Shown here: in pieces, positions 11,826-31,145 of the stretch | Numbering within the stretch: position 1 is the first letter of the stretch | Layout: every line of letters starts with the position of its first letter | DNA from: an uncultured Gemmatimonadales bacterium | Lineage (GTDB): Bacteria; Gemmatimonadota; Gemmatimonadetes; Longimicrobiales; RSA9 | Length of the DNA: 64,000 bases | Assembly (NCBI GenBank): GCA_963708135.1 | Contig: OY970192.1 | Span: 2,176,001-2,240,000 of the forward strand | Direction: 5' to 3' | Position numbers and translations under genes: made by a program | The notes under the pieces: generated by a model | What the model was told of the DNA's origin: nothing | The model's input: only the letters and a program-made list of their open reading frames with translations | Databases searched by the model: none

Positions 11826-11841
11826 ATGATCTTGGTGCCCA

Positions 11842-12350: not shown

Positions 12351-12356
12351 GGCTTG

Positions 12357-12385
12357 AAGATGGTCCCGAAGCGCTGCCGGGTCAA
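12357..12385 (-). promoter_or_regulatory. Sigma70-like promoter, probably giving a leaderless mRNA
   Basis: TTGACC - 17 nt - CATCTT - 6 nt - ATG, with no RBS. Confidence 0.6.
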
Positions 12386-12436
12386 GGGGTTGCGAGGTGC
12401 GCGGCGGGGCGCGGCAGGGCGCCCCGCCGGCTCCGC

Positions 12437-13813: not shown

Positions 13814-14914
13814 CTACATCCCGCCTCCCGGAGCCGCGCCGCCTCCCTCGCCCGGCCTGGTTGGTGGACCCGGACCTGGAGAAGTTCGATCGGGTGGCGC
13901 CTCGCCGGCTTCCGCATTCCCGCCCTCCTCCCAGAAGGCGGGGGCGTCGGGCGGCTCGGTGGCGCGCAGGCGGTCGAGGCGCTCGCGGTCGCGGTGTCGC
14001 CTGATGAGCACCAGGACGAGCAGGAACGGGGTGAGGAGGAGCCAGAAGACGAGGCTGTTGGAGAGGACGACGGCCCAGCCGTAACGGCGTGCGACGAAGG
14101 CGCGCCACTCCTTCTCGAAGAGCGCGGAGGTGAGTCCGTAGGTGGCGCGCAGGGCGGGCTCGAAGCCGGTGTCGCGCCAGCTCAGCAGGAACAGGCCGAG
14201 GCCGCGGACGCCGGCCTGGGAGGCGAGGAACTGGACCGCGGTGGCGGAGAGCAGGTAGGCGACGCGCGCGTCGGTCTCGCCGGCGGGCCACTCGAGCGCG
14301 AGGGAGTCGAGCGGCGGGGCGCGGTGGAGCGCGAAGGCGATGCGCAGCAGCCAGGCGGCGTTCCAGTCGAGGCCATCGGAAGCCCAGACCGCGTAGCCCT
14401 CGTCGAACCAGCGCGGGATGCGGCGGGGGCCGAGGAAGCGATGCAGCGCGACATGGGCGAGCTCGTGGCGCAGGATGGCGCCGAGCTGGTCCGCCTGGGC
14501 GCGGCGGGAGGCGTAGGCGGGGAGCACGATGACGCCGCGGGCGGGCTCCGCGATGCCCGCGCCCCAGCCGGGCGCCGCGCCTTCGGTGAGCGAGTCGAAG
14601 CGGGCGGGGTCGGGGGCCATGTAGATGTGCACCGGATCGGCCGGTGTGAAGAGGCCGGGCGGCAGGCCGGGCAGGGGCTGGAAGGCGGCGGCGAGCCGGG
14701 CGAGATGGGCGGCGAGCGCCTGTCGGCCGGGCCAGTAGTGGAAGCGCATGCCGTCGGCGTCGATGGTGCCGGGGGGTGCGGCGCGCGCCGTACCGGCGGG
14801 GGGGGCGGCGGGCGGCGTGGCGGACGCCTGGACGGCGGGCCCGCCTGCGGCCGGTGCCCGCACCGGAGCGGCCGCGAGCACGGCCGCCAGCGCGAGAGCG
14901 GCCGCGGCGGTCAG
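13814..14914 (-). CDS. Peptidase MA-like (gluzincin) metallopeptidase with signal peptide and C-terminal TM helix
   Basis: LRHELAH (HExxH) plus PRWFDEGYA. Start is either an in-frame CTG at 14914 overlapping the cheW stop, or GTG at 14881. Confidence 0.8.
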   Translation of the reverse strand: MTAAAALALAAVLAAAPVRAPAAGGPAVQASATPPAAPPAGTARAAPPGTIDADGMRFHYWPGRQALAAHLARLAAAFQPLPGLPPGLFTPADPVHIYMAPDPARFDSLTEGAAPGWGAGIAEPARGVIVLPAYASRRAQADQLGAILRHELAHVALHRFLGPRRIPRWFDEGYAVWASDGLDWNAAWLLRIAFALHRAPPLDSLALEWPAGETDARVAYLLSATAVQFLASQAGVRGLGLFLLSWRDTGFEPALRATYGLTSALFEKEWRAFVARRYGWAVVLSNSLVFWLLLTPFLLVLVLIRRHRDRERLDRLRATEPPDAPAFWEEGGNAEAGEAPPDRTSPGPGPPTRPGEGGGAAPGGGM

Positions 14915-15783
14915 CTCCCCTCCCTGCCCGGCTCCTCGAGGTCGGTGGCCTGCAGCGCGAGCCGTTCCTCGGAGCTGAGGATGCGGTCGATGCGGAGCAG
15001 GATGGCAATGCGCTCGTCGTGGCGGAACAGGCCCTCGAGGTAGCGTGCGGCGAGGCCGCGGAAGTAGGCGGGCGGCTCCTGGAGCTGATCGGCCGGGAGG
15101 CGTACGATCTGGGTGACGGAGTCGGCAACGAGGCCGACCCTCTCGCCGTCGAGCTCGACGACCACGATGCGGGCGCCGGCGCCGGGCTCGCGCTCGGGAA
15201 GACCGAGCCGGCCGCGCAGCGAGATGATGGGGACGGCCTGGTCGCGCACGGAGAGCACGCCATCGACGAAGTCGGGCGCGCCGGGCACGCGGCTGGGCGG
15301 CTCCCAGGCGAGCACCTCATGCACGCCCGAGACGCGCATGGCGAGCAGGTCCTCGCCGAGCCGGAGCACGACGATCGGGATGGGCGGGGCAACGACGGGG
15401 TCCTGGGGCATCTCCTCGTCTTCCCAGCCGGGCGGCAGCCCGGCCTCGAACAGCGTTTCGGGATCGAGCGGCGTCACCAGCACGTCGCCGAAATCTTCGT
15501 GGATGCCGGCGATGGCATCCACGGCGAGCGCGAAGCGGATCCGCCCGCGCCGCAGCACGAGGGCGTGTGGGCGCGCCGCCGCGGGCAGACCGAGCATGGG
15601 CCCGGGATCGAGCGCCGGGATCCAGCGGCCGCGGTAGCGGAGCAACCCGGCCGCGTGGGATGCGAGCGCCGGCAGCGCCTCCAGGCGGGCGTTCTCGAGG
15701 GCCTCCTCCACCGCGGCGGCGGGAAGGGCGAAGGCCTCGTCCCCCACGCGGAATGCGACCTCGACGGCCGCCGGCCCCGTCAC
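14911..15783 (-). CDS. cheW: Double CheW-domain protein (first domain shortened)
   Basis: GTG overlaps the cheB stop. AFRVGDEAFALP...AGLLRYRG..IPALD is followed by VVLRLGEDLLAM...VPGAPDFVDGVLSVRDQAVPIISLR...VGLVADSV. Confidence 0.85.
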   Translation of the reverse strand: MTGPAAVEVAFRVGDEAFALPAAAVEEALENARLEALPALASHAAGLLRYRGRWIPALDPGPMLGLPAAARPHALVLRRGRIRFALAVDAIAGIHEDFGDVLVTPLDPETLFEAGLPPGWEDEEMPQDPVVAPPIPIVVLRLGEDLLAMRVSGVHEVLAWEPPSRVPGAPDFVDGVLSVRDQAVPIISLRGRLGLPEREPGAGARIVVVELDGERVGLVADSVTQIVRLPADQLQEPPAYFRGLAARYLEGLFRHDERIAILLRIDRILSSEERLALQATDLEEPGREGS

Positions 15784-16895
15784 CGCCCGGCCTTCCGGCG
15801 GCCGACCCGCGCGTCGCCGCCCGCCTGCATGGCGGCAACCCGGCGCGCGAGCGCGGGCCCGACCTCCGACAGCGGCAGCACCTCCCGGGCATAGGGCGCC
15901 GCCGCGCGCGGCATCCCGTAGATGACGGAGCTCGCGCGGTCCTGCGCGATGGTCCAGCCGCCGACCGCGGCGATGGCGCGCAGCCCATCGGCGCCGTCGC
16001 GGCCCATGCCGGTGAGCACGACGCCGATGCTGGCGGGCCCGAAGTGCGCGGCCACGGCGCGGAAGAGCACGTCGGCGGCGGGGCGCAGCCCCCAGACGGG
16101 CGGCGAGTCGAGGAGCTCGAGCGCCACGCCACCGCGCGTGCGCCGGAGGGCGAGGTGACGGCCTCCGGGCGCGATGTGGACGGTGCCGCGCGTCACGACC
16201 TCGCCATCGACCGCCTCGCGGACGGAGACGGCGCTCACACGGTCGAGGCGGTCGGCCAGATAATGCGTGAAGCGGGGCGGCATGTGTTGCACGACCAGGA
16301 TGCCGGCCGGGCAGTCGGCGGGGAGCGCGCGCACCACGTCGTCGACGGCGCGCGGGCCGCCGGTCGAGGCCGCGATGGCGACCACGCACTCTGCCGCGCC
16401 GGCGTCCCTCGGCGCGCCGGCGAGCCGCGGCATCCCCGTCGCCGGCAGGCGGACCGTCAGGTTGGCGAGGTCGGCCTGGGCGGCGGCGCGGAGCGCGGCC
16501 AGGAGTCGGCCGCGCAGCGCATCCAGCCCATCGCCGGCATCCTCGCCGGCGGGCTTCAGCACCACCTCGACGGCGCCGAGGTCGAAGGCGCGCAGCGCGG
16601 GCTCCGCGCCGCGGGCGCCGTGGGCGGAGAGGATCACGACCGGTCGCGGCGCCTCGCTCATGATGTAGCCGAGCGTATCGAGCCCGCCGAGGTCCGGCAT
16701 CTCCAGGTCGAGCGTCACGATGTCGGGGGCGCGCTCGTGGACGAGCCGGATGGCCTCGTAGCCCGTGGCCGCCTCGGCCACCACGGTGAACTCGCCCGAC
16801 GCCTCGAGGAGCGCGACGATGGTGGCGCGCACGACGGCGCTGTCCTCGACGACGAGCACGCCCGGGCGCGCCGGACCGCGCTCAGAGGAGGACAT
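15780..16895 (-). CDS. cheB: Chemotaxis methylesterase (REC plus CheB)
   Basis: REC motif VTLDLEMP; catalytic ASTGGP, QHMP and GMGRDGA. Confidence 0.96.
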   Translation of the reverse strand: MSSSERGPARPGVLVVEDSAVVRATIVALLEASGEFTVVAEAATGYEAIRLVHERAPDIVTLDLEMPDLGGLDTLGYIMSEAPRPVVILSAHGARGAEPALRAFDLGAVEVVLKPAGEDAGDGLDALRGRLLAALRAAAQADLANLTVRLPATGMPRLAGAPRDAGAAECVVAIAASTGGPRAVDDVVRALPADCPAGILVVQHMPPRFTHYLADRLDRVSAVSVREAVDGEVVTRGTVHIAPGGRHLALRRTRGGVALELLDSPPVWGLRPAADVLFRAVAAHFGPASIGVVLTGMGRDGADGLRAIAAVGGWTIAQDRASSVIYGMPRAAAPYAREVLPLSEVGPALARRVAAMQAGGDARVGRRKAGR

Positions 16896-17370
16896 CGGGG
16901 CGCAGGATCGAGGTGACCACGACGCGGCCGTCCTCGACGTGGAAGAACACGGAGCGGCCGTGGCCGCCGCCGACCTCCTCGCCGGCCAGGGGGACGCCCG
17001 CGGTGCCGAGCGCGTCCCGGGCGGCCTCCACGTTGCGCGCGCCGAGCGTCTGCTCGCCTTCCGCGGTGAGGGACTCGAACATGGCCGCGCCGCCGATGAT
17101 GCGCGCGGTCAACCGGGCGCGCACGGCGCCCAGCTCGTCGAGCGCCGCGAGGGCGAGGGGGATGGCGCTGGCGACGAAACGGCCGGGCGGCACCTGGCGG
17201 CGGGCGGCGCTCGGATCGGGGAGCATGGCGTGGGTGAGGGCGCCGACGCGGGCGAGGGGGTCGTGCAGCGCCACGGCCACGCACGAGCCGAGGCCGAGGG
17301 CGAGGAGCACGCCGCCTTCACGGGCGACCTTCACCTCCCCGATCCGGACCACGAGCCGCTCCTCAGTCAT
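16882..17370 (-). CDS. cheD: Chemoreceptor glutamine deamidase
   Basis: LGLGSCVAV, HAMLP, IIGGAAMF, GARN, EEVGG.HGRSV. Confidence 0.95.
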   Translation of the reverse strand: MTEERLVVRIGEVKVAREGGVLLALGLGSCVAVALHDPLARVGALTHAMLPDPSAARRQVPPGRFVASAIPLALAALDELGAVRARLTARIIGGAAMFESLTAEGEQTLGARNVEAARDALGTAGVPLAGEEVGGGHGRSVFFHVEDGRVVVTSILRPDVLL

Positions 17371-18299
17371 GCGCGCCGGAAGATGCGCTCGCGGTTGGCC
17401 ACGGGCTCGAAGCTCCGTGCGCCCGCCCCGAACAGCGTTTCCACCTTGCCCATCACCAGAAAGCCGCCGGGCGCGAGCGCCTCGTGGAAGCGGAGGAACA
17501 GCGACTCCTGTACCGGCCGCTCGAAGTAGATGATCACGTTGCGGCAGAGGATCAGGTGCTGCGCCCGGGGGAAGGGGCCGACCATCAGGTCGAGGGACTC
17601 GAAGCGGACGCGGTGGCGCAGCTCGGCCGCGACCCGGCTGGCGCGGGGCCCCTCGAACCAGCGGCGGCGCAGGCGCTCGGGGATCTCGCCGAAGGCGAAG
17701 TCGCCGTACTCGGCCCGTTCCGCGATGCGCAGGCTCTCGCGGTCGATGTCGCTGGCGCGGATGACGAAGCGGTCCAGCCGGTCCGTGAGCCCGTGCTCCT
17801 CGGCATAGTCGGCGAGCAGGATCGCCACGGAGAACGGCTCCTCGCCGCCGGCCGCGCCGGCGCTCCAGATCCGCACCTCGCGGTCGCGCAGCGCGAAGAG
17901 CGCGGGCACGACCTCCGCGCGCAGTGTCTCCCACACCTCGGGGTTGCGGTAGAACTTGCTGACGTTGATGGTGATCGTGTCGAGCAGCCGCTGGTACTCC
18001 TCGGCGTCGCGGCCCACCAGGTCGGCGTAGTCGGCGTAGCGGTGGACGCCCCGGGCGCGCATGCGCACGGCGATGCGGCGGCGCAGGCACTTCTCCTTGT
18101 AGCCGGCGGAGCGCAGGCCTCCCTTTGCCTCGATGAGCTCCTTGAGCGCCTGGAGCTCGTCCGCGTCCTCCGCGGCGAGATCCCCGTACGCGAGCGGCAG
18201 TGGCAGCGGGGCCGGGTAACGGAGCGGCCCCGCCGCCGGCGCGAGGGGGCCGGACGGCGCGGCGCCCCCGTCGCCGGGCACGGCGCCGTCAACCGGCAT
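17367..18299 (-). CDS. cheR: Chemotaxis methyltransferase
   Basis: TINVSKFYRNP, IWSAGAAGGEEPFS, ASDID, LILCRNVIIYF. Start is uncertain because of a Pro/Ala-rich N-terminus. Confidence 0.93.
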   Translation of the reverse strand: MPVDGAVPGDGGAAPSGPLAPAAGPLRYPAPLPLPLAYGDLAAEDADELQALKELIEAKGGLRSAGYKEKCLRRRIAVRMRARGVHRYADYADLVGRDAEEYQRLLDTITINVSKFYRNPEVWETLRAEVVPALFALRDREVRIWSAGAAGGEEPFSVAILLADYAEEHGLTDRLDRFVIRASDIDRESLRIAERAEYGDFAFGEIPERLRRRWFEGPRASRVAAELRHRVRFESLDLMVGPFPRAQHLILCRNVIIYFERPVQESLFLRFHEALAPGGFLVMGKVETLFGAGARSFEPVANRERIFRRA

Positions 18300-19911
18300 G
18301 GGCCACGATATCGAGGTTGTTGCGCACGACCTGGTTCTCCGGGTTCAGCTCGAGCGCGCGGCGCCAGCATTCGACGGCGCGTTCACGCTCCAGGCGCTTG
18401 TAGTGAAGGTTGCCCAGGCGCGCGTAGACGTCGTCGCCGAGCTCCGGCGCCAGCTCCGTGGCGCGCGCGTAGTGGGCCAGCGCCTCCTCCTGCAGCCCGC
18501 GCCGGTAGGCCACGTCGCCGAGGCCCTTCTGCGCCTGCGCGAGCGCCGGGCTCTCATCCGCGGCGAGGCGGTAGTAGCGCTCGGCATCGTCGAGCTCGTC
18601 GCGCCGCTCCGCGATGGCGCCCGCCACGAGCAGCAGCAGCGCGGAGGATGGGTGCGAGCCCACGCCGTCGGCAGCGTGGGTCGCGGCCTCCTCGAGGCGC
18701 CCCGCCAGGGCGGCGGCGAGGGCCGCGTGATAGAAGTACACCGGCGCGGGGCTGGCGGTCGAGGGCAGCCGCGCGCGGTAGCACGCGAGCTCATCGAGCG
18801 CCGCCGCGGGATCGCCCAGGTCGAGGCACACGAGCCCGCGCGAGAGCGGCACCAGCGGCGTGTCCGGGCGCAGCCGCTCGGCCTCCTCGAGCGCGAGCAG
18901 CGCGTCCTCCGGCCGGCCCAGCCGCCTGAGCGCCCAGGCCATGTCCACGAACGCGGCGTAGCGCGGCCCGCGCGCCTCCACCAGCTGCTTGAGCCCGACG
19001 ATGCCGGCCCGGTACTCTCCCCGCCGCAGGCGGACGAGGGCGAGGTGGAAGCGGGCGGCGACGTCGCCTGGAGACAGCTCCAGCACGCGCTCGAGCTCGC
19101 GCACGGCATCCTCGAGCAGGCCGGCCTTCGAGAAGGCGACTCCGAGGTTGCGCCGTTCGGCCGCCTCGCTCTCGCGCAGCCGCGGCGACTCGGCGTCCGC
19201 GCGCCGGCCCACGCGGTGGGCGAATCCCGCCTGGATCAGGCCGAAGAGCGCCTTGCCGACGTCGAACTCGCCGAGGCCGGTTGCGTCGATGATCTCCTGG
19301 ACGGTGCGGGTGCCGTCGAGCAGCGTCGCGAGCTGCCGCTGCTCCTCGTTCAGGTCCACCCCGGCCGCGAGCAGCCGGTCGCGCTCCACCTCGAAGAGCA
19401 GGTCGAGGGTGGGGATCTTCTTCTCGATGAGGCTCCACTCGTCGATCCGGCGCGCGGCCTCGAGCAGCAGGCTCTCGGGGTTGATCGAGACCAGTACGTC
19501 CGCGCCCTCTGGTCGCTCGTCCACCTCGAAGAAGAAGCTGCCGCGCGACCAGGTGAAGAGGTGGTAGACGGCCTCCTCGATCTGGATCCGGACGTAGTTG
19601 GTGACGTCCTCCATGCTCACCATCTCGGCCTCGGCGAGCAGCTCGCCGAGGCGGCGGTCCGGCTCGCGAGCCTGCCGGTCGAGCACCGCGCGAAGCTCCG
19701 CCTGCGTCAGCTTGCCGTCGTGGACCAGCAGGTCCCCCAGACGATCGCGGCGGTTGACGATGTGCGCGTAGGTGATCCGGCCGCGCTCGAAGTAGACCTG
19801 CCCGAAGCGCGACCGGTCCGTCACCGACAGGCAGCCGGTCTTCTGGCCCATCGCCAGCAGCTGGCACACATCGGCCAGGCTGGCCTCCTTCAGGCTCCCC
19901 TTGATCGCCAC
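18289..19911 (-). CDS. DUF4388 (PatA-N-like) plus MshEN-like motif plus TPR protein
   Basis: MAIKGSLKEASLADVCQLL...KTGCL, W..GSFFFE, LLLEAARRIDE; tandem RLG motifs; C-terminal TPRs. Confidence 0.85.
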   Translation of the reverse strand: MAIKGSLKEASLADVCQLLAMGQKTGCLSVTDRSRFGQVYFERGRITYAHIVNRRDRLGDLLVHDGKLTQAELRAVLDRQAREPDRRLGELLAEAEMVSMEDVTNYVRIQIEEAVYHLFTWSRGSFFFEVDERPEGADVLVSINPESLLLEAARRIDEWSLIEKKIPTLDLLFEVERDRLLAAGVDLNEEQRQLATLLDGTRTVQEIIDATGLGEFDVGKALFGLIQAGFAHRVGRRADAESPRLRESEAAERRNLGVAFSKAGLLEDAVRELERVLELSPGDVAARFHLALVRLRRGEYRAGIVGLKQLVEARGPRYAAFVDMAWALRRLGRPEDALLALEEAERLRPDTPLVPLSRGLVCLDLGDPAAALDELACYRARLPSTASPAPVYFYHAALAAALAGRLEEAATHAADGVGSHPSSALLLLVAGAIAERRDELDDAERYYRLAADESPALAQAQKGLGDVAYRRGLQEEALAHYARATELAPELGDDVYARLGNLHYKRLERERAVECWRRALELNPENQVVRNNLDIVAHAG

Positions 19912-19914: not shown

Positions 19915-21798
19915 TCAGTCCAGCTCCTGCACGATGAGATCCTCCAGCGGCCAGTCCCGAACCAGCTTCTCCCGGCTGAGGAACCAGGCATCGACGATGC
20001 CGCCGGACGGCGCGCGGCCGTCCTTGCCCACGCCGGCGCTCCGAGCGGCCACGCCTGCCGCAGGCGACGGCGCCGCCTCCGCCTCCACGGCCCCGGCCGC
20101 GGCGCCGGCCTCCTCCGGGTCCGCCGGCGCCGCCGCAGCGGGAGCCGCTTCAGGCGCGGACGCGGCGACCTCGACGGCGAGACCGCTGTCGAGCCGCGTG
20201 CGCAGGCGCTCGGCGATGCCGGCGAGCGCCTTCGGCGGACGCTCGGCGCCGAAGACGAGCTGGGCGCCGGCGCGCTGGAGCGACTCGAAGAGGTGGAACA
20301 GCTCCTCCTGGGCGCGCTCGGTATCGGCGAGCGCATCCACGCCGTCGAGGATGAGCGCGCCGGCGCGGCGGTAGCGGGCGCGCCACGCCTCGATGCGGTT
20401 GTGCTCGAGCGCCTGGATGAGCTCGCTCGCGAAAGCGGCGCCGGGCAGGTAGGCCACGGCGCAGTCCGGCCGCGCGCGCTGCAGCTCGGCGCCGAGCGCG
20501 CCGAGCAGCTCGGCGCGGCCCTCGCGCGGCCCGTGCACGAAGAACGGGTTGTAGCGGCGCCCCGGCTCCTCGACGGCCGCGCGGGCGGCGCGCAGGGCGA
20601 AGGAGTCGCCGAGGCGGAGGGCGTCGAAGGAGCGGTCGGGCGGCGGCGCGGGGAGCGGTCGGGCGCGTTCGCGCACGCGCGAGAGCAGCTCCTCGGCGTC
20701 GGGGCGGCGGTCCGGGTCGCGGAAGAGGTCCATGCGCGCTAGCTCGGGCGCGGCCGGCTCGAGCGATGCGATCTCGCCAGCAACCTCGCGGAGCCGCTCG
20801 ACATCGGCCTCGTAGGCGCGCACGATGCGCTCGACCTCCTCGTCGGGCGGCACCTGCGCGAGCGCCTTCTCGAGCCGGTTGGTGCGGTAGCCCTCGCCCT
20901 CCCAGCGCAGGATTGCGTTGCCGATCTGGCGCTCGGCGCTTCCCGCCGCGCCGACCACCTCGCCGACGGTGCCGGCGATGTCGGCGAGGAACTGGTCGAA
21001 CTCGCCCTCTACCGGCTCCGCGGCGACGACTCCGGCGGCGGCGGTCGCACCGCCCGGGCCGGCCGCGGCGCCGAAGAGGCGGCCGACCTCGTCGGGCGCG
21101 ACCTCCCGGTCCTCGAGCTCTTGCACGGCCAGCAGCCGGTTGAGGCCGCCCTGCAGCTCGCGGACGTTGCCGAAGGCGACGCGGGCCAGCGCCTCGGCCA
21201 CGCCGCCCGCGAGACGCTGCCCGCGTTCCTCGACCTTGCGCCGGAGGATGGCCACGCGGGTCTCGTAGTCGGGGGCCATGATGTCGACGATGAGGCCGCC
21301 GGAGAAGCGCGAGAGCAGGCGCTCATCCAGGCCGTCGATCTCGGGCGGCGGGCGGTCGCTGACGAGGACGACCTGCCCGCCGCGCGCGGAGAGGGCGTCC
21401 CAGGCGCGGATCAGCTCCTCCTGCGCGCGGTGCCGCCCGGCCAGGAACTGGACGTCGTCGAGGAGCAGGATGTCGACGGCCTCGACCCGGGTTCGGTAGG
21501 CATCGCGGTCGCCTGCCTCGACGGAGGCGATGAGCCCGTCCATGAAGTGCTCGAGCGTGTCGTAGACCAGCGCCAGCTCGGGGTGGATGCGGGTGGCGTG
21601 GTGGCCGATGGCGTTGAGCAGGTGGGTCTTGCCGAGCCCGGACGCGCTGTAGATGAAGAGCGGGTTGTAGGACGTGCCCGGCGCCTCCGCCACGCGGCGG
21701 GCGGCGGCGCAGGTCAGGCGGTTGCCCGCGCCGATGACGAAGGAGTCGAAGGTGAAGCGGGGATCCAGCTCGAGGGGACTCATGCGGGCGCGGCTCAC
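19915..21798 (-). CDS. DnaA/Hda-family protein with two tandem AAA+ modules and no DnaA domain I or IV
   Basis: Module 1: FTFDSFV.G..N, YNPLFIY, SASGLGKT, LLLDDVQF, SDRPP, ERLLSRF..G, NVREL.G. Module 2: YNPFFVHG (no GKT), LILDGV, QEELFHLF, ERLRTRL..G. Confidence 0.85.
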   Translation of the reverse strand: MSRARMSPLELDPRFTFDSFVIGAGNRLTCAAARRVAEAPGTSYNPLFIYSASGLGKTHLLNAIGHHATRIHPELALVYDTLEHFMDGLIASVEAGDRDAYRTRVEAVDILLLDDVQFLAGRHRAQEELIRAWDALSARGGQVVLVSDRPPPEIDGLDERLLSRFSGGLIVDIMAPDYETRVAILRRKVEERGQRLAGGVAEALARVAFGNVRELQGGLNRLLAVQELEDREVAPDEVGRLFGAAAGPGGATAAAGVVAAEPVEGEFDQFLADIAGTVGEVVGAAGSAERQIGNAILRWEGEGYRTNRLEKALAQVPPDEEVERIVRAYEADVERLREVAGEIASLEPAAPELARMDLFRDPDRRPDAEELLSRVRERARPLPAPPPDRSFDALRLGDSFALRAARAAVEEPGRRYNPFFVHGPREGRAELLGALGAELQRARPDCAVAYLPGAAFASELIQALEHNRIEAWRARYRRAGALILDGVDALADTERAQEELFHLFESLQRAGAQLVFGAERPPKALAGIAERLRTRLDSGLAVEVAASAPEAAPAAAAPADPEEAGAAAGAVEAEAAPSPAAGVAARSAGVGKDGRAPSGGIVDAWFLSREKLVRDWPLEDLIVQELD

Positions 21799-22415
21799 TT
21801 CCCGGGTGCGGCGGGCACGGCGCCCGCACGGAACTTCCTCGAGAGGCTGCGCAGCACGAGATCGCTCACGGCGCGCAGCGTGTCGAAGACGCCCTCGCCC
21901 GTCACGGCGATGGCCGGGAAAGCGGGGACGCCACGGAAGTTGAGCGCGTCCTCGAGCTCGTCCCAGCCCTGGGTGCCGGGCAGGTCGCGCTTGTTGTACT
22001 GGAGCACGAGGGGGGTGTCGAGTACGTCGAGGTCCTGGTCGATCAGGTTCTCGTGCAGGTTGCGCAGGCTCTCCAGGTTCTGCTCCGTCTGCTCGGGCTG
22101 CGAGTCCGCCACGAAGACGACGCCATCCGCGCCGCGCAGCACGAGCTTGCGGGTGGCGTCGTAATAGACCTGGCCGGGCACGGTGTAGAGCTGGAGCCGG
22201 GTGCGGAAGCCGGAGATGGCGCCCAGGTCGAGCGGCAGGAAATCGAAGAACAGCGTGCGGTCCGTCTCGGTGGCGAGCGAGACCATGGAGCCCTTCCGCT
22301 CGTCCGGCACGTGGGCGTGGATGTACTGCAGGTTCGTCGTCTTGCCGGACCGGCCCGGTCCGTAGTAGACGATCTTGCAGGTGATCTCCCGGGTCGAGTA
22401 GTTGACGAGCGACAT
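21795..22415 (-). CDS. mglA: MglA-family small GTPase
   Basis: KIVYYGPGRSGKTTNL, TETDRTLFFDFLP, LYTVPGQVYY, QYNKRD. Confidence 0.96.
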   Translation of the reverse strand: MSLVNYSTREITCKIVYYGPGRSGKTTNLQYIHAHVPDERKGSMVSLATETDRTLFFDFLPLDLGAISGFRTRLQLYTVPGQVYYDATRKLVLRGADGVVFVADSQPEQTEQNLESLRNLHENLIDQDLDVLDTPLVLQYNKRDLPGTQGWDELEDALNFRGVPAFPAIAVTGEGVFDTLRAVSDLVLRSLSRKFRAGAVPAAPGK

Positions 22416-22909
22416 CAGGCCTCTCTCACGGCATCGGTCGGCAGCGCGACCCGCACGCCGGCCTCCAGGTCGTGTTCGAAGCTGGCGGCGTCACGGGAGC
22501 CGCCGGCGCCGCGCAGCGCCTCGAGGCCGCGCACCTCCTGGCCCAGCCGCTCGAAGAAGAGCTGGACCAGCCCGAGCGAGGAATCGTCGTCGAAGATCGC
22601 GATCAGGATGAGCTCGGCTCCGGGCGCCCGGAGCGGCGCCAGGAAGAGCTGCCGGTCGCGGCCGGCGTGGTGCAGATGCGTCCACCGGCCCGCCGGCGTC
22701 ATGCCGGCCAGCATTCCGGCGGCGGCGTGCGCCGCGGCCGCGAGCGAGGCGACGTTCACCACCTCGTAGCTGCGGGTGAAGCCGTGCTGCGCCAGCACCT
22801 GCCCCGCGCCGCTGACCAGCAGGCAGGTGCGGACGCGGGCCTCGCGCACGAATCGGCCGACCGGGTCCCCGAGCGCGGCGACGATTCGGTCCAGGTCCTC
22901 CCGCTTCAC
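22415..22909 (-). CDS. mglB: MglB-like roadblock/LC7 protein
   Basis: Directly upstream of mglA. LLVSGAGQVLAQHG, VASLAAA and IFDDDSSLGLV resemble MglB. Confidence 0.7.
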   Translation of the reverse strand: MKREDLDRIVAALGDPVGRFVREARVRTCLLVSGAGQVLAQHGFTRSYEVVNVASLAAAAHAAAGMLAGMTPAGRWTHLHHAGRDRQLFLAPLRAPGAELILIAIFDDDSSLGLVQLFFERLGQEVRGLEALRGAGGSRDAASFEHDLEAGVRVALPTDAVREA

Positions 22910-23253
22910 GAGAGCCCCTCCGCCGCCCTGTGGACCTCGAGCCGGACCAGCCCGAGCTGCGCGCCATGGTCGGCCACCGCCACGACCATGAGCTCCCCGG
23001 CGCCGGCCATGACCACGTGCCCCTCCGCCGCCTCGAGCTGCAGCGTGTCCAGCCGGCCGAATCCCGCGGCGTCCGCGGCCCGCGAGGTCCGGCGGAACAC
23101 CGAGGCCGCCAGCGCCGCCACCGGACCGCCGTCCACCCGGGCGGCGAGCTCGGCCACGACGGGAACGCCGGCCTGCGCGTCCACGATGAGGGCACCGCGC
23201 ACGCCGGGCACGCGGCTCAGCCGCTCCAGGGCGCCACCGAACGGGGCGTTCAT
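22906..23253 (-). CDS. Stand-alone roadblock/LC7 protein
   Basis: GGAGGAGG RBS; VPGVRGALIVDAQAGVPV...AALAAS...QLGLVRLE. Confidence 0.88.
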   Translation of the reverse strand: MNAPFGGALERLSRVPGVRGALIVDAQAGVPVVAELAARVDGGPVAALAASVFRRTSRAADAAGFGRLDTLQLEAAEGHVVMAGAGELMVVAVADHGAQLGLVRLEVHRAAEGLS

Positions 23254-24173
23254 ACGACCTCCTCCAGGTAGCTCCGGGCGAGCCGCTCGGCGCGGGCGGC
23301 CGCGCGCAGCACCCACCCCGTCGGCGCGCTGCGGCTCACGGCGATCAGGACGGCGAGCCCGCGCCCGAGCGGCGCGAGGTGCAGCATGGCCTCCTCCGCC
23401 TCCAGCAGGATCCCCTTCCACTCGCCCAGGCCGAGCAGCGAGGCGGTACGGCCGGCCTCGTCGATCGCGCCGCCCAGGATCGCGCCGGTGGCCTCCATCC
23501 CGGCACCGCCCCTCACGGTGCCCGCGAGCACGAGGCCCTGGTCATCGAGCACGAGCGCGCCGATGAACGGCGCCTCATCGAGCAGCGCCTCGAAGATGCG
23601 GTTCGGGTCCCGCGGCGCGACGTCCGCCCCGGCGCGGCCGGCGCTTCGCGCGGCGTGGGGCGCGGGCGCGTGGGGCGCGGGCGCGTGGGGCGCGGGCGCG
23701 GCGGGCGACGGCGAAGCGGGCGCCGCGGGCGCTCCGGGAGGCGCGCTGGCGGCGGCCGCACCGTCGCGGCGGGCGAGCAGCTCGAGCGCCTCGCGGACGG
23801 CCGGATCGGCGGGGCGCAGGGAAGCGGCCGACTCGAGGTGTCGCCTCGCCCCGGCGTACTCGCCGCGCTCGAGATCGTAGAAACCCATGCCGCGGTGGGC
23901 GTCGAAGTCCTGCGGCTGGAGCCGCAGCACGATCGACCACTCGTCGGATGCGCGCTCCCGGTCGCCGGCCTCGAGGTAGAGGAGCGCGAGCAACCCGTGC
24001 GCCTCCAGGTGCGAGGGGTTCCTCTCGAGGCCGCGCAGACAGACGCGCAGCGCCGCGTCATGCCGGCCCTGGCGCCGGTAGGCGCGCGCGAGCGGCAGGA
24101 AGGCCGGCGAGCCGGGGTCGCGCGCCACCTGCTCGCTCCAGTGCTGCAGGTCCGCGGGTCCGGGTGTGCTCAT
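23250..24173 (-). CDS. TPR plus roadblock/LC7 fusion protein
   Basis: N-terminal TPRs ([18 protein letters not shown]), a Pro/Ala linker, then C-terminal [14 protein letters not shown]...APTGWVL. Confidence 0.85.
23653..23697. repeat. Three 15-bp in-frame tandem repeats encoding APAPH in the linker
   Basis: GCGTGGGGCGCGGGC x3. Confidence 0.85.
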
Positions 24174-25297
24174 GCGTCCGTGTCCTGTGTCAGGAGCTGG
24201 GTCAGGGTGTCCACCGCCGCGAGCGCCTCCTCCACGATGCGCCGGCCCGGCGCATTGGTCGAGAGCCGAAGGAAGGTGGTCCAGGCATCGACGGCGCGGG
24301 CAAACTCGCCGGTCCGCACGGCCGCGAAGCCGAGGCGATAGTGGGCCGTCGGCGAGAGCGGATCCAGTCCGACGGCGCGCGCGAATGCCTCCGTGGCCGC
24401 GCGCATGCGGCCCTGCGCGAGCAGGGTGCGCCCCGAGAGCAGGGAGAACTCGGCGCGCTCGGCGTAGGTGGCCTCGAGCTCGCCCACCCGGCGCGATGCC
24501 TCCTCGAGCTGCCCGCCCGAGAGCAGCGCCTCCACCTCGGAGACGGCCGCGTAGAGCTTGCGCTCGGGCATCCGGCTGCGGCGCTCGTGGACCTCGACCA
24601 CGCCGGTGCTGACGAGGCCGAAGATAATGCGGGCCACCTCGAAGCTGCTCTTGCCGACGGCGGCGGCGAGCTGGCGCAGGTCGCGCTCACCGTCGATCTC
24701 CGCCAGCACCTCCCACTCGTCGGGGTGCAGCTCGAGGGTCGCGCTCTCGCGCTCATCCACGGGCGCGAGCACCGGCACGGCTTCCTCGTTCGGCACCTTC
24801 GACTCGAGCCGCGTCCACTCGTCGATCCGGCGCGCGCCCTCCATGAGCAGCGAGTCCACGCGGACCCGGACGCCCACGCGCTGGTGCCCGATCTCGGGCC
24901 GGTCCTCGAAGCGGAAGTAGCCCTGCTCCCAGCTCATCACATCGAAGATGGTCTCCTCGATCTGGAAGCGGATCTGCTGGTGGATGTCGTCCACCGAGAC
25001 ACTGCCCATCTCCACCAGCACGTCCGCCAACCGGCGCGACGGGTCCTGGCGCTGCAGCTCGAGCGCGCGCTCCAGCTCGCGGTCCGTCAGCTTGCCGGCC
25101 CGCAGCAGCAGCTGCCCGAGCTGCCGACTCGAGCGGCGCCGCACGGCGAACAGCACGGCGCCGTTGTGGAAGTGGACGATGGACTCGTCGTTCAGCCGGT
25201 CCGAGCGCACGGTCAGCACGCCCGTCTTCCGCGCCAGGTCCAGCAGCTGCAGCACATCCTGGATACTCAGCTCCTCCAGCGGTCCCTCGATCGCCAT
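24170..25297 (-). CDS. DUF4388 plus degenerate MshEN-like motif plus TPR protein
   Basis: [19 protein letters not shown]...[25 protein letters not shown]. Paralog of 18289..19911. Confidence 0.85.
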
Positions 25298-25306
25298 GGC
25301 GCGCCC

Positions 25307-28057
25307 TTACCCCGTGGCGGCGCCGGTCGCGCCGAGCCCGGCGCGCGCCGGGCGGTGGGCCGGGTCGAAGCGCAGCACGCGCCGGAACGCACGCGCCGCG
25401 TCCTCCGCACGGCCGGCCTCCATCAGAAGCTGGCCCAGCCGCGTGAGCGCATCCAGCTGGCAGGGATCCACGGCGAGCAGGTCGGCCAGCACCGCCACGG
25501 CCGCGCGCGGGCCGCCGCGCAGGCGATCGAGCTCAGCCAGCTCGAGCGCCGCGTCGCCGTAGCTGGGCAACAGCTCGAGCGCGGCGCGCAGCTCGGCCTC
25601 CGACTCGGCGAGCCGGCCGTTCAGGCGCAGGATCCGGCCCAGCCGCGTGCGCGCGGCCACCGCCCCCGGGTCGAGCGCGACGGCGCCGCGGAGCGCCCGC
25701 TCGGCGCCCGCGCCGTCGCCCGCGGCGAGCCGCGCCGCGCCCAGGTCCGAGAGCCGCATCGCGTCCTCGGGCGCCACGGCGCTCGCCTGCTCGAGCAGGT
25801 CCACCGCTCGGGCGTGGTCCCCGGCCGCCGAGAGGATCCGGCCGAGCGTGCCGAGCGCGTCGGCCGAGTCCGGCGCCGCCCGGTGCAGGCGCTCGGCGTG
25901 GAGCCACGCCTCGTCCAGCCGGCCGAGGGTGAAGAGCGACTGTGCGGCGCCGCGAAGCGCATCGTGCTCCGCACCCTCCGGCGCCGGAACGCCTCCCTCC
26001 GGGAGCGCCTCCAGATAGGCCAGCGCCGCGCGAAACCGATCCACTGCCTCGCCGGCGAGCTGCCGGCGCAGAAAGATCTCGCCCTGGAGCAGCAGCAGCT
26101 CGAGCCGGTCCGCGCCCGCGCCCACCGCCCGCTGCGCCTCCGCGGACGCGCGCTCGAGCTCGCCCCGCTCGAGCGCGTCGCGCGCGGCCGCGAGCGCCTC
26201 GCCGGCCCCCTCGCCCGCGCCGCCCGCGGCGCGTCCGGCGCCGGCGCCGAGCTCGCCGAAGATGCCGTCCAGCGCCGCGGCGTCGAACTCGAAGCTCTCG
26301 ACCGCACCGCCCACCTCCACCCGCTCGGGCATGTCGAGCTCGGGCGCGAGGACGGAGGCCTCCTCGAACTGCAGGTCGATGAGCAGCCGGAAGCGGGGCG
26401 CCGGATAGTACGGGTCGAGCTCGAGCGCGAGCCGGGTCTCCCGCAGCGCGCCGTGGTAGTCGCCGAGCGCGGAAAGCGCGAAGGCGAGCTGGTAGCGCGC
26501 CTCCGCCAGCTCCGGATCCGCCTCCACCGCCCGCACGAGCGCCGCCCTGGCCTCGGCCGGGTGACGCGCCTCCAGCAGCACGGTCCCGAGGCCCGTCCAG
26601 GCCGTGGCGGACTCCGGGTCCAGATCCAGGGCACGGCGGTAGGCGGTCACCGCCCCGCGCGGATCGCCACCGCGCGCGAGGACGAGCCCGAGATTGCGCC
26701 AGATGTCGGCGGGCGCGCGCTCGCCCTCGAGCGCGCGCCGCAGCGCCCTCTCCGCCGCGCCGGCGTCGCCGCCGTGGTGCAACAGCACGCCAAGGTTGTT
26801 CCACGCGAGCGCGTAGTCCGGATCGAGCTCGAGCGCGCGGCGGTAGGCGGCGTCCGCCGCGTCCAGGTCACCCACGTGGTGCGCGGCCACGCCGCGCTCG
26901 TTCCACAGCTTGGGGCTGCCGGGCTCCTCCTCGCTCAGCCGGGTGTAGCGCTCGAGCGCCTCCTGCCCCTTGCCGCGCAGCAGCGCCATCTCCGCCTGCG
27001 CCTGTCCGACCAGGAGCGCGTCCTCGCCGCCGTCGAGAGCGAGCGTGAACTCCCGCGCCGCCTCGTCGAAGAGCGCCTTCTGGCGGAAGGCCAGGGCGAG
27101 GTTGTAGTGCGCGAGGGTGCCCTCGGCCAGCTCCGGCCGCCAGGTGCGGTCCCCCACCAGCTCCTCGTAGCGGGCCCGGCTGTAGCGGTCGAGCGAGAGG
27201 TTCCTCTCCGCCCGGGCGTAGCTCGGATTGAGCTCCTCGGCGGTGGCGGACGAGGCGGCGGCGCGGGCATCCTCGCCTACGTCGCCGTAGACGAACGCCA
27301 GCAGGTGATGGGCCTCCGCCAGCTCCGGCTCGAGCGCCACGGCGCGCTCCAGCGCCTCGCGCGCCTCCGCGGCGAGCCCCTGGTTGTAGAGCAGCTCGCC
27401 CAGGCGCAACTGGACGCGGGCGTCCTCCGGCGCCGCGCGCGCGGCCGCACCGAGCAGGGTGAGCGCGGCATCCAGCTCGCCGCGCATCGCCTCCGCGCGG
27501 GCGAGCGCGAGGCGGACCTCGACATCGTCCGGCTCGAGGCGGAGCAGGGCGCGCCATTCCCGGATCGCGGCGCCCGGATCGCCGGCGTAGAGGTAGGCGC
27601 GGGCGAGACGGGCGCGGCTGGCCCGGTCGTCGGGCGCGTCCTCCAGGCGCTGGCGCAGCTCGCCCACCAACTGCTCGAAGTACCCGGTGTGGAAGTAGGC
27701 GATCTGGAGGTTGCGCTCCGCGACCTGCATGCGCGGCTCCAGCTCGAGCGCGCGCTCGAACTCGGCGATCGCCTCCTCGAAGAGCCCCTTGTGGTAGTAG
27801 ACGACGCCGAGGTTGTTGTGCGCGCCCGCATCGTTCGCGTTGATGCGGCGGGCGAGCGCGCGCAGGATCTCCAGGTCGCGCTCGGAGCGGGGCGAGGGGC
27901 GCGCGGGCGGCGCCGCGGCGGAGAGAGCGGCAGGGAGCTCGGCGGCCGGCGCGTCGGCGCCGGCGGGCGCGGCCGAGGCCCGCGCGGGCGGGGGCGCCGG
28001 CGGCGGATCATCGAGCTCCCACGGCATGAGCTCGGACGGCGCCAGGGAGCGCTCCAT
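25307..28057 (-). CDS. Large multi-TPR protein
   Basis: Many TPR units (AHNNLGVVYY..G..EEAI..FERALELEP, AWNNLG, AYRRALDLDP) across about 900 aa; no TM seen. Confidence 0.9.
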   Translation of the reverse strand: MERSLAPSELMPWELDDPPPAPPPARASAAPAGADAPAAELPAALSAAAPPARPSPRSERDLEILRALARRINANDAGAHNNLGVVYYHKGLFEEAIAEFERALELEPRMQVAERNLQIAYFHTGYFEQLVGELRQRLEDAPDDRASRARLARAYLYAGDPGAAIREWRALLRLEPDDVEVRLALARAEAMRGELDAALTLLGAAARAAPEDARVQLRLGELLYNQGLAAEAREALERAVALEPELAEAHHLLAFVYGDVGEDARAAASSATAEELNPSYARAERNLSLDRYSRARYEELVGDRTWRPELAEGTLAHYNLALAFRQKALFDEAAREFTLALDGGEDALLVGQAQAEMALLRGKGQEALERYTRLSEEEPGSPKLWNERGVAAHHVGDLDAADAAYRRALELDPDYALAWNNLGVLLHHGGDAGAAERALRRALEGERAPADIWRNLGLVLARGGDPRGAVTAYRRALDLDPESATAWTGLGTVLLEARHPAEARAALVRAVEADPELAEARYQLAFALSALGDYHGALRETRLALELDPYYPAPRFRLLIDLQFEEASVLAPELDMPERVEVGGAVESFEFDAAALDGIFGELGAGAGRAAGGAGEGAGEALAAARDALERGELERASAEAQRAVGAGADRLELLLLQGEIFLRRQLAGEAVDRFRAALAYLEALPEGGVPAPEGAEHDALRGAAQSLFTLGRLDEAWLHAERLHRAAPDSADALGTLGRILSAAGDHARAVDLLEQASAVAPEDAMRLSDLGAARLAAGDGAGAERALRGAVALDPGAVAARTRLGRILRLNGRLAESEAELRAALELLPSYGDAALELAELDRLRGGPRAAVAVLADLLAVDPCQLDALTRLGQLLMEAGRAEDAARAFRRVLRFDPAHRPARAGLGATGAATG

Positions 28058-28059: not shown

Positions 28060-28683
28060 CTAGGCGAGGCGGAGCGCCTGGAGGAGCACGTCGAGCGAGA
28101 CGCGATCGGGCACGAGCAGGAAGTGCGCGCTCAGAGGCTCGCCCTCATCGGCCATGGAGAGCCGCGTGTCGATGCAGAGCACGTAGTCCTCGTTCTCGCC
28201 GAAGTTCAGGTACGCGCTGGTCAGCACGGCACCTGCCTGGTCGATGGCCATGGCCGGAACGGACATGAGGAGCAGCATGCCGAGGAACTCGGAGAGGGCG
28301 TTCAGGTAGGCGCCGACGAGGATGTTGCCGACCTCCTTGAGCACCGACTCCTCCATCTCAGCGAACGCCTCGGGGAACGGGATCGGCCCGCGCGCGAGCA
28401 GGATCTCCGCGAGCCGCTTCGCCGTCGCGGCCGGGAACACCTGCACGGTCCGGCCGGTCGCATCTCCGAGGACGCGCATGAGCACGGCGGCCACGGGCTG
28501 CGCGGGGTCCCCGAGCAGCTCCGCGATCTGCTCCAGCGGCACGATCCGGAGCTCCGGGGCGCGTACGCCGATGCGCCGGCTCGTCATCGTGGAGAGCGCC
28601 GTGGCGGCGTGACCCGCGCCAATGTTGGCCACCTCGCGCAAGCCGTCGAGCTGCAGATGGTCCAGCTCCCGGACGTCCTTCAT
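28060..28683 (-). CDS. cheC: CheY-P phosphatase
   Basis: Two D/S-x3-E-x2-N sites: DGLREVANIG and SVLKEVGNI. Confidence 0.93.
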   Translation of the reverse strand: MKDVRELDHLQLDGLREVANIGAGHAATALSTMTSRRIGVRAPELRIVPLEQIAELLGDPAQPVAAVLMRVLGDATGRTVQVFPAATAKRLAEILLARGPIPFPEAFAEMEESVLKEVGNILVGAYLNALSEFLGMLLLMSVPAMAIDQAGAVLTSAYLNFGENEDYVLCIDTRLSMADEGEPLSAHFLLVPDRVSLDVLLQALRLA

Positions 28684-28697
28684 CGGACCTTCCCCGC

Positions 28698-30584
28698 TCA
28701 GATCACGTTCATGGGATCCAGCACCAGCGCCGGCCGGCCGTCGGCCAGCAGCGTGACGCCGGAGAAGAAGGGGAGCGTTCCCACGGCGGGATCGAACCCC
28801 TTCACGACCACCTGCTCGCGCGCGACCAGCTCGTCCACGGCCAGCGCGGTGCGGCGCTCTCCGACCTCGGCGATGAGCGCCGCCTTCTCCCCGCCCCGGC
28901 CCGCCGGCGCCTCGAGCAGCTCGCTCAGACGGAGCAGCGGCACGACCTCGCCGCGCAACCGGAGGACCTCGCGGCCACGCACCCGGGCGAGCGAGCCGTC
29001 CAGCAGGTCCACCGCCTCCGAGACGTGCGTCATCGGCACCGCGTAGTCCTCACCCGCCACGCGCACGCGGAGCGCCGACGCCACGGCCAGCGTGATCGGC
29101 AGCCGCAGCGTGAAGGTGGAGCCCCCGCCAGGCGTGGTGCGGAGGTCAACGCTGCCGCCCAGCGCGCGCACCCGCTCTACCACGGCGTTCATGCCGACGC
29201 CGCGCCCGGAGACCTGCGTCACCTGGCGGGCCGTCGAGAGGCCCGGCAGCGCGAGCAGCCGGAGCAGCGCCTCCCCCGTGGCGGGCTCCGCCTCCTCCGG
29301 CCCGGCAAGCCCGAGCTCGCGCGCCCGCTCCACGACCCGGGCGGCGTCCACGCCGCGGCCGTCGTCGCGGACCCGGATCACCACCGTGGACTGCTCCCGG
29401 ACGGCGCTCAGCACGAGCAGGCCAGCGGCCGGCTTGCCGGCCGCCTCCCGCTCGGCCGCGCTCTCCAGCCCGTGATCGACGGCGTTCCGGAGCAGGTGCA
29501 CGAGCGGATCGGCGATCTCGTCCAGCACGGATCGGTCGAGCTCAATGTCGCGGCCCTCCAGGCGGAACTCGACCTGCTTCTCGAGCGCCCGGGCGGCATC
29601 CCGCACCATGCGCGGGAAGCGCTCGAGCACCTCGTCCACCGGGACCATGCGCATGGCGAGCGTGGTGCCCTGCAGCCCCTCGAGCAGGGCGCCGACCCGG
29701 TCGGCCAGGTCCGCCACCGGCCCCGGCTCCCCGTCCGTCAGCTCGCGCAGCCGCAGCGTCAGCACGGACAGCTCACCGATCCCGTCCGCCAGCGCGTCCA
29801 GGTGCCGCTGGTCCACGCGCAGGTGCCGCGAACGCGCCGCCTCCGCACGCCGCGCCGCCGCCCGCCGCGCCGCCGGTCCCTCGAAGGCGACGGACTCGAC
29901 GTCTCCCGCCAGCCGCACCGCGGACTCCACGGCCTGCGGATCCGGCGTCCCGGCCAGGAACAGGCGCAGCTCGCCGCCGAATCCCGCCGTCACGTCCTCG
30001 GGATCGCTGCCCAGCAACTCGGCCACACGGGCCACGTTCTGGCGCGCGATGAGCGCCCGCGCGGCAGGCAGCGGGGCGGCGGGGTCGATGCGCACCCGGA
30101 CCACCAGCGCCGTGCCCTCCGGGGGCGGAGCGGGGGGAGCGAGCGCCGCCGCCGCGGCGGCCGCCTCCGCGGCGAAGCGGGCGCCGCCGCGCCCGTGGGC
30201 CTCGGCACCGGCGTTGCCGGAGGCGATATCCCGCGGCGCAGCGGCCACCTGCGCCGCGTCCTCCGAATCCTCCGCCTCGCTGGCCTCGTCCACCGCATCG
30301 CGCAGCTCATCGGAGCGCCGGAGCAGCTCGTCGATCAGCGCGGCGTCCACGCGCGCGCCGCCGCGGATCCCCTCGAGCCGGTCCTCCAGCGCGTGTGCCA
30401 GCGCCGCAACCCGGGGGTAGCCCATGGTCGCGGCCATCCCCTTGATCGTGTGCGCGGCGCGGAACGCCTCCTCGACGCCCGCGACGCCGCCGGAGGACTC
30501 GACCAGCAGCAGCCCGTCCGAGAGCACGCGCAGGTGCTCGCGCGCCTCCGAGCGGTAGAGCTCGAGGTAGCGGCTCAGGTCCAC
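28698..30584 (-). CDS. cheA: Chemotaxis histidine kinase (Hpt, P2-like, dimerisation, HATPase and CheW domains)
   Basis: FRAAHTIKG, DPLVHLLRNAVDHG, DDGRG, SGRGVGM, LPITLA. Confidence 0.96.
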   Translation of the reverse strand: MDLSRYLELYRSEAREHLRVLSDGLLLVESSGGVAGVEEAFRAAHTIKGMAATMGYPRVAALAHALEDRLEGIRGGARVDAALIDELLRRSDELRDAVDEASEAEDSEDAAQVAAAPRDIASGNAGAEAHGRGGARFAAEAAAAAAALAPPAPPPEGTALVVRVRIDPAAPLPAARALIARQNVARVAELLGSDPEDVTAGFGGELRLFLAGTPDPQAVESAVRLAGDVESVAFEGPAARRAAARRAEAARSRHLRVDQRHLDALADGIGELSVLTLRLRELTDGEPGPVADLADRVGALLEGLQGTTLAMRMVPVDEVLERFPRMVRDAARALEKQVEFRLEGRDIELDRSVLDEIADPLVHLLRNAVDHGLESAAEREAAGKPAAGLLVLSAVREQSTVVIRVRDDGRGVDAARVVERARELGLAGPEEAEPATGEALLRLLALPGLSTARQVTQVSGRGVGMNAVVERVRALGGSVDLRTTPGGGSTFTLRLPITLAVASALRVRVAGEDYAVPMTHVSEAVDLLDGSLARVRGREVLRLRGEVVPLLRLSELLEAPAGRGGEKAALIAEVGERRTALAVDELVAREQVVVKGFDPAVGTLPFFSGVTLLADGRPALVLDPMNVI

Positions 30585-30642
30585 GCCGGCCCCCTCCGCC
30601 CCCGCGGCAGGCGCGCCGGGCAGGCGCCGGATCGGGCTCCGC

Positions 30643-31005: not shown

Positions 31006-31145
31006 TGCTCCCCCGGTCGTGAAGCGATTCCATACCGTCGAGCGGCCCCTTCGTCCGCGGCTCCGGCGGACCGGCGGCCCGGCGCCCGCCACTCGGCGGC
31101 CGGGCGCGCGCCGGTCTCGGCGAGCTCCCCTTGCGGCCCGACCGA

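Follow-up and report, generated by a model that had tools for sequence, protein, structure and literature searches.

The window analyzed here, a stretch of 64,000 nucleotides from the 5.45 Mb single-contig genome of an uncultured Gemmatimonadales bacterium, contains a tightly packed minus-strand array of chemosensory, small GTPase and TPR genes that includes an uninterrupted frame for a protein with two DnaA domain III modules (19915..21798). Read from its upstream end, the array comprises cheW, a cheY-type receiver gene, cheA and cheC (28060..31622), a large TPR gene (916 aa) and the DUF4388-MshE-motif-TPR gene A (24170..28057), TPR-Roadblock, Roadblock and mglB-like genes of the Roadblock/LC7 type (22415..24173), a gene for an MglA-type small GTPase (21795..22415), the tandem gene, the DUF4388(PATAN)-MshE motif-TPR gene B encoding 540 aa (18289..19911), cheR, cheD, cheB and a double cheW (14911..18299) and, at the array end, a peptidase MA gene that persists when the rest is lost (13814..14881). 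Both DUF4388 proteins scored above the cut-off for the MshE-related c-di-GMP motif, which lies at aa 57-107 in the product of gene B. The earlier note had described the tandem gene as translationally coupled to mglA; the 4-nt start/stop overlap exists with the GTG start only, and the tandem gene is instead linked tightly to the DUF4388-TPR gene B downstream, whose start follows the tandem-gene stop by 3 nt. The genome (completeness 97.7%) encodes two PilT proteins over the cut-off and one MCP, and no match to flagellin was found in it.

A Wzi-like gene of opposite orientation (31616-33565 (+), Pfam 32.9 bits) separates cheW from rluD; it looks like an insertion since rluD directly precedes cheW in loci L072, L075 and L083. 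The rluD gene (33578-34558 (-)) is a constant upstream landmark that lies right next to the tandem gene once the Che/Mgl block has been lost. Just past the array are a gene for a three-BON-domain protein (12437-13207 (-)), an ORF of 98 aa that lacks a Pfam match and is hydrophobic in its C-terminal half (12144-12440 (-)), and a stretch whose translation resembles a read-through tRNA gene (~11780-11860 (-)); in L089 an ORF similar to the 98-aa ORF follows the peptidase gene and a stretch similar to the latter follows the array.

Domain layout of the tandem protein

The frame encodes 627 aa from GTG, or 622 aa from the ATG at 21783, where the homolog database places the start. The tandem ORF reported in the earlier note is real and each motif listed there was located in it. 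The protein begins directly at domain III, without domain I (Pfam, alignment), and the Pfam scan yielded two Bac_DnaA matches (E 2.9e-54 and 2.6e-34 when the two stretches are split), no DnaA_N and no Bac_DnaA_C. Module 1 (21079..21768 (-)) is a complete AAA+ domain with lid, and its catalytic motifs had rightly been called intact: Walker A SASGLGKT (aa 51-58, 21648-21625), Walker B LLLDDVQF (21468-21445), sensor I SDRPP (21360-21346), box VII RLLSRF (21321-21304) and sensor II NVREL (21168-21154), all on the minus strand as are the features below; its ssDNA and box VI residues are altered as compared to DnaA. It is followed by an acidic amphipathic 'EF..FL.D' helix (20950..21009, aa ~264-283), which has low confidence in the monomer model, and by a helical domain of ~92 aa, here called the linker (20662..20937, aa 288-379). 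Module 2 (20173..20607) is a lidless DnaA domain IIIa with a degenerate P-loop HGPREGRAELL (20535-20503), one residue shorter than in relatives, and a DG variant of Walker B, ILDGVD (20352-20335), and with the conserved QEELFHLF (20310-20287) and arginine-finger region ERLRTRL (20211-20191); the absence of its lid and sensor II had been missed before. The two modules are 36% identical over the 163 aa compared. An Ala/Pro/Glu low-complexity linker replaces the module-2 lid (20002..20163), and the protein ends, as the earlier note had described, in a Trp/acidic tail, which has 28 residues (19915..20001); the tail sequence quoted in that note starts at 19992. The AlphaFold monomer model reached a pLDDT of 85 and a pTM of 0.60. 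The TIGR00362 (DnaA) cut-off was exceeded (381 vs 343.9 bits, in two matched stretches), so pipelines can misname the protein DnaA; the match spans only profile positions 103-329 of 437 and was not taken as membership.

Conservation of the two ATPase modules

Searching with the C-terminal 378 aa identified 444 homologs out of 8000 scored candidates, and 120 of these homologs were listed. The tandem protein is a conserved Gemmatimonadota family, an undescribed relative of DnaA without its DNA-binding parts; by the source names of its homologs the window protein falls in Gemmatimonadota, close to Longimicrobiales. All family counts stem from related genomes with at least two duplicate loci and are non-independent. 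Module 1 is nearly invariant in 119 of the listed homologs, 118 of which keep its core motifs, the exception being a gap; its own finger is likewise kept in 118/119, a conservation that a closed intramolecular pair would leave unexplained. The proposal that module 2 supplies an arginine finger had been tied to conservation of its arginine, and the box VII arginines of module 2 are indeed invariant (119/119 listed homologs), with R531, R535, Q497, E499, F501 and F504 each present in 119/119. The description of module 2 as a pseudo-ATPase applies to the window protein and its order-level relatives and fails family-wide: the full Walker A [GAS]x4GK[ST] was found in module 2 of 65/119 listed homologs, GxxxxGK[ST] is intact in 62 of 80 genome-derived module 2s, and most Gemmatimonadales-type members have a module-2 lid with the sensor-II arginine. 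Since most relatives carry a full module-2 Walker A and the lidless forms from the window's order fall into a single branch (SH-aLRT 95-97, quick trees), the dead P-loop is, by alignment and tree, lineage-specific and derived.

Among relatives the number of ATPase modules is two, one or zero, as module 2 or both may be missing, and forms that retain one module frequently show degeneration, in which the finger or Walker B is altered. Module 1 and module 2 each formed one group apart from canonical DnaA in trees of 106 and 112 rows, which were subsampled, dropped three frameshifted loci, came from quick searches and leave the origin of the modules unrooted. The tandem gene appears split by frameshifts, either real or from sequencing error, in four genomes (L061, L076, L091, L097). 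An Acidimicrobiia-labelled tandem match nests among Gemmatimonadota, is probably mislabelled and was not counted as spread.

Residues named as essential in B. subtilis DnaA (PMC6669920, PMC10721633) were mapped onto the modules via an 8BTG alignment. Module 1 (91 sequences) keeps K157 (91/91), F218 (79/91), R260 (83/91), R264 (86/91), R313 (87/91) and G317 (84/91), and has lost N187 (0/91), F230 (1/91), H231 (0/91) and mostly R206 (11/91). Module 2 (80 sequences) keeps I190 (65/80), R202 (78/80), R206 (63/80), E228 (79/80), F230 (76/80), R260 (79/80), R264 (78/80) and L269 (79/80), F218 being mostly lost. The set of ssDNA/filament residues essential in B. subtilis is incomplete in both modules; the controls, 11 DnaAs of the phylum and 45 outgroup domains, retain nearly all mapped residues, and a domain IV query matched 44/45 outgroup loci vs 0/30 tandem loci. 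With faces assigned from the DnaA structure, module 1 would retain the ATP face and module 2 the DnaA finger face. The pattern of kept residues fits module 2 lending a built-in arginine finger to module 1, and it also fits a two-protomer unit that bears DnaA-like outer faces.

The downstream partner and the putative docking motifs

In the 30 best loci from a search of 301 genomes, the DUF4388-TPR gene lay directly downstream in 30/30 and mglA directly upstream in 26; at further loci the former was directly downstream in 17/20 and a TPR-only relative in the other three. In 12 genomes (11/11 examined of family f2, and G203) mglA is non-adjacent: rluD is directly upstream, the Che/Mgl block is gone, the partner is retained and another mglA paralog is encoded elsewhere. 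L089 retains mglA yet lost the tandem gene and the partner at the locus, and L083 and L084 keep a pair of mini-gene (see below) and partner without adjacent mglA. Gene order thus points to the downstream DUF4388(PATAN)-MshEN-TPR gene, not mglA, as the constant neighbour. The partner was sought in 80 of the 301 genomes; among the 43 with only canonical dnaA it gave no match in 37 and was present in six, all six with a mini-gene, and among the 37 with extra DnaA matches it was present in 30. In four genomes of other classes (G003, G006, G009, G015) one DnaA module carries the same tail and a TPR-only gene comes next; module and tail are also present in G012, whereas G063 gave weak repeated matches and G112 a fragment. 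Divergent single modules with the same Trp/acidic tail were also seen at loci L063, L064, L065, L190, L191 and L193 of other classes, near dapF-like and glycosyltransferase-like genes in L063-L065 (by eye) and with receiver, cheR and cheW genes downstream in L064.

The mini-gene, an ORF of ~60-75 aa just upstream of the partner in six genomes, encodes nothing but the EF..F(L/M).D helix and the tail, meaning that both ATPase modules were deleted in four genera with the putative docking motifs retained; the six genomes are non-independent because all belong to one family (four genera). Over 62 codons the pair L083/L084 shows 7 synonymous changes and no replacement; of 60 codons in the pair L079/L080, 7 differ synonymously and 22 by replacement, so that codon comparison indicates clear purifying selection on the mini-gene in L083/L084 only. 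Partners in the mini-gene genomes lack the last TPRs (all six) and a 53-aa MshE-related insert (5/6), and still keep most of the groove modelled below. A search for W-tailed ORFs before the partner, with W required by the pattern, made 83 calls across 94 loci, one in the wrong frame; at tail positions not required by the pattern, E occurred in 78, K in 66, W in 65, R in 70 and E in 78 of the 83 calls. The stop of the W-tailed ORF overlaps or abuts the partner start in 64 cases, and the EE codons at the very end of the tail may also serve the following gene as a Shine-Dalgarno-like ribosome-binding site.

A complex between the entire partner (124-row alignment) and the C-terminal 40 residues of the tandem protein was modelled alongside three controls and scored 0.83 vs 0.00 for the best control, against a mark that is reached by 116/157 solved and 2/215 mismatched pairs, counts that hold only roughly for the alignments used here. 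At least 83% of contacts agree between runs, the partner pLDDT is 70-72, and the modelled tail contacts fall on partner residues 261-495, the TPR groove. Groove residues show no enriched conservation relative to the other TPR-region residues (0.64 vs 0.65 in all 124 rows, 0.62 vs 0.55 in the 16 distant rows). Because many solved structures contain TPR-peptide complexes, the model's pass may partly reflect likeness to these. As a prediction, the model supports binding of the tail in the TPR groove of the partner, and a second docking motif is probably provided by the acidic EF helix.

The linker and DnaA domains in other architectures

The linker, which the earlier note had described as helical and as replacing the domain IV HTH, is predicted to be a helical bundle (pLDDT 86). 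No domain IV HTH was detected: Bac_DnaA_C is absent from the protein and from 85 linker members (Pfam). A hidden domain IV in the linker was rejected, as only 1/85 members gave a weak HTH_31 match below the cut-off and there was no structural match. Against the PDB the best match was a generic helical bundle (Z 7.0, rmsd 3.2, 116 aligned), Foldseek gave no match at E<=0.001 and a search of the Atlas no usable one. A profile search of 1.84 billion representatives returned 512 matches, the top ones including long proteins with 4-27 copies; each of the 16 long proteins tested in a repeat check yielded forward domains scoring at least 10 bits, whereas the reversed sequences yielded none, and a 53-repeat profile found the linker as its best match in the genome (43 bits, next 11), the repeats having been chosen by the linker profile. 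According to these profile comparisons, the linker represents a single unit of a helical repeat that is arrayed in archaeal and other proteins, with named members in Thermoplasmata, Bathyarchaeia/Thermoproteota, Wallbacteria and one Methylacidiphilaceae record. In 6/41 scanned matches a long repeat array is followed by Bac_DnaA without domain IV; one such protein as query found ~20 relatives. An archaeal origin of these repeat-DnaA proteins is probable on indirect grounds: two metagenome scans found no genomic context for them, and named cluster members are available only for repeat proteins without a DnaA domain. A relation of their N-terminal domain to PATAN is unsupported (hhalign probability 0.9%, E 0.06), the resemblance being visual only.

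DnaA ATPase domains elsewhere are fused to MshEN, TPRs, DUF835 and the same helical repeat. The Atlas holds an all-archaeal Bac_DnaA+DUF835 cluster of 115 members (match score 0.88, a lead), DUF835 being listed among the output domains that archaeal response regulators carry, as one of inactive KaiC type (PMC5847659). In a quick tree the fused DnaA domains group with neither module, which argues for parallel reuse rather than shared descent; nor does it support a common origin for the DnaA domains associated with repeats and module 2. Several further architectures were observed. P0417, P0419, P0422 and P0432 (1900-2000 aa) have an N-terminal MshEN and two DnaA ATPase domains with long helical repeats between them, a second tandem-DnaA architecture on a separate branch, one partial relative of which is named Candidatus Fermentibacteria. 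P0252, P0261, P0259, P0245 and relatives (~1300 aa) combine an N-terminal domain with eight helical repeats, a well-conserved DnaA ATPase domain and zinc ribbons; they are probably archaeal and are named DnaA in databases. P0435 combines a CHC2 zinc finger, a TPR array and a DnaA ATPase domain, and L171, without domain IV, groups with it. Identical weak Bac_DnaA matches to 264-aa frames at G000:C1 1079234, 1320062 and 1824839 are probably IstB of a repeated IS21-type element.

Discussion

DnaA-fold proteins are familiar as replication factors, namely DnaA, Hda and related loaders. The tandem protein is most likely a non-initiator adaptor. It lacks the DNA-binding and N-terminal domains and occurs alongside a normal DnaA, the separate canonical dnaA expected in the earlier note being found directly before dnaN, ~1.95 Mb from the tandem gene, and encoding 471 aa with all three Pfam domains. 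We propose with fair confidence that an initiator-fold ATPase has taken on the role of a docked switch within a pathway of chemosensory/polarity type, which is probably that of a type IV pilus. Comparison of loci and the complex model suggest that the tail docks into the TPR groove of the co-translated DUF4388(PATAN)-MshEN-like-TPR scaffold. Module 1 would bind and hydrolyse ATP, and module 2 would offer a DnaA-type finger face to the module-1 site, within the same chain or head-to-tail between copies; in the window lineage module 2 would no longer bind nucleotide and would serve only as finger or cap. The nucleotide state may then alter the oligomeric state of the docked scaffold, which could tune the output of the Che/MglA-Roadblock/c-di-GMP pathway, most likely at the type IV pilus or polarity level. 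The ATPase modules would be an accessory layer that lineages can trim, and the docking motifs the irreducible core. By analogy with the precedents of PATAN-PilB1/PilC and SgmX, and given the c-di-GMP motifs, the two PilT proteins, the one MCP and the absence of a flagellin match, a type IV pilus or polarity output is likely. A bolder version, which we regard as possible and decidedly tentative, is that the DnaA ATPase domain was recruited separately in Gemmatimonadota, archaea and other bacteria as a nucleotide switch of general use for signalling scaffolds (PATAN, MshEN, TPR, inactive-KaiC DUF835 and helical repeats), the tandem protein being a pre-assembled two-protomer DnaA filament unit that through its ATP cycle clusters the c-di-GMP-sensing PATAN-TPR scaffold at the pilus pole. 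There would then be a class of initiator-fold signalling ATPases without a replication role.

The earlier note had offered two options, a signalling switch and a modulator of true DnaA; the former is favoured and the latter less likely. As a modulator, the tandem protein would mimic two DnaA protomers and cap or co-assemble with DnaA, or lend it an Hda-like finger, so that initiation would be gated by TPR tethering. The retention in module 2 of R202, R206, R264, L269, I190 and E228, which are essential in B. subtilis, speaks for it, both outward-compatible faces could be DnaA-like, and a precedent exists in Hda, which acts on DnaA via box VI/VII and its finger (PMC5397184). However, module 1 is without N187, F230, H231 and mostly R206, an Hda-type clamp motif and domain IV are lacking, four genera deleted both modules while the docking motifs stayed, and searches of many near-complete genomes from the phylum did not detect the gene pair. 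Moreover, similar fusions occur in archaea, which initiate replication with Orc1/Cdc6. Within the window, the TTATCCACA box with at most one mismatch was seen 0 times vs 1.09 expected, an uninformative result. We consider modulation of DnaA unlikely.

Less probable still is a direct effector or regulator of MglA, in which binding of MglA-GTP or Roadblock proteins would couple the GTPase state to the ATPase cycle. The upstream position of mglA in most of the best loci, and its overlap with the tandem gene if GTG is the start, would fit such a role, but the partner outlasts the Che/Mgl block in the examined f2 genomes and G203, which have rluD upstream, L089 shows the reverse loss, and the mini-gene pairs of L083 and L084 do without an adjacent mglA; as a caveat, the f2 genomes and G203 still encode an MglA paralog elsewhere. 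A decaying scaffold, with largely passive ATPase domains as spacers or oligomerisation domains and only two short motifs that matter, would agree with the variation from two modules to zero and the often degenerate single-module forms, yet it is the most improbable of these readings given the module-1 Walker A lysine in 91/91 and sensor II in 87/91 sequences and the core motifs kept in all but one of the 119 listed homologs.

Use of the DnaA fold within a chemosensory-polarity operon, by a family conserved in much of a phylum, would widen the replication-only picture. The natural series of two, one and zero modules, the intact versus dead module 2 and the 28-residue tail offer direct tests in culturable Gemmatimonadota. 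For annotation, a warning is due, since pipelines call such tandem proteins 'DnaA'. Full-text searches of non-subscription literature surfaced no description of the tandem protein, although supplementary gene tables could list it, and found no paper on DUF4388 together with DnaA; the part of PMC4316618 that mentions Gemmatimonadetes MglA never mentions DnaA.

By the features tested, the tandem protein is neither DnaA nor Hda. It resembles DnaA in its 44-47% identity to the genome's own DnaA, in the Foldseek match (TMt 0.94, rmsd 1.7 A) with 8BV3, the domain III of B. subtilis, and in the complete catalytic motifs of module 1 (Walker A/B, sensors, box VII). It differs in having two modules and neither domain I nor IV, and its gene, located in a Che/Mgl operon away from dnaN, is dispensable in many genomes and neither the sole nor a universal copy. 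With Hda/HdaA it shares being a DnaA paralog without domain IV, module 2 keeping the box VI/VII finger face, whereas the tandem modules, repeat domain and docking tail set it apart, as does a TIGR03420 score of 120 bits against a cut-off of 194.8. The N-terminal clamp-binding motif QLSLPL described for Hda (PMC5397184) was not found at the N-terminus, and 2/120 sequences gave a weak internal match. It is a variant within the DnaA/Hda clade whose role probably lies outside replication.

A comparable setting is the Myxococcus MglA/MglB-Frz-SgmX polarity and pilus system, which likewise combines MglA, Roadblock and chemosensory genes with TPR scaffolds and in which pilus formation involves recruitment of SgmX, a TPR protein, by MglA, partners being bound via TPR sets (PMC11580455); no DnaA-fold component is mentioned in the account of the system given there, and here all parts lie in one operon. 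The PATAN (DUF4388) domain is shared with cyanobacterial pilus regulators, where PATAN domains bind PilB1/PilC in Synechocystis and PATAN-GspE_N(MshEN) fusions have been noted (bioRxiv 2021.06.11.447907), but in the partner described here TPRs take the place of a receiver domain, and its gene goes together with that of a DnaA-fold protein. Finally, the tandem AAA+ proteins p97, NSF and Rix7 also have two AAA+ modules per chain, one of them relaxed, whereas the tandem protein belongs to the initiator clade and its Foldseek matches are domain-level only (TMq ~0.28, rmsd >20 A).
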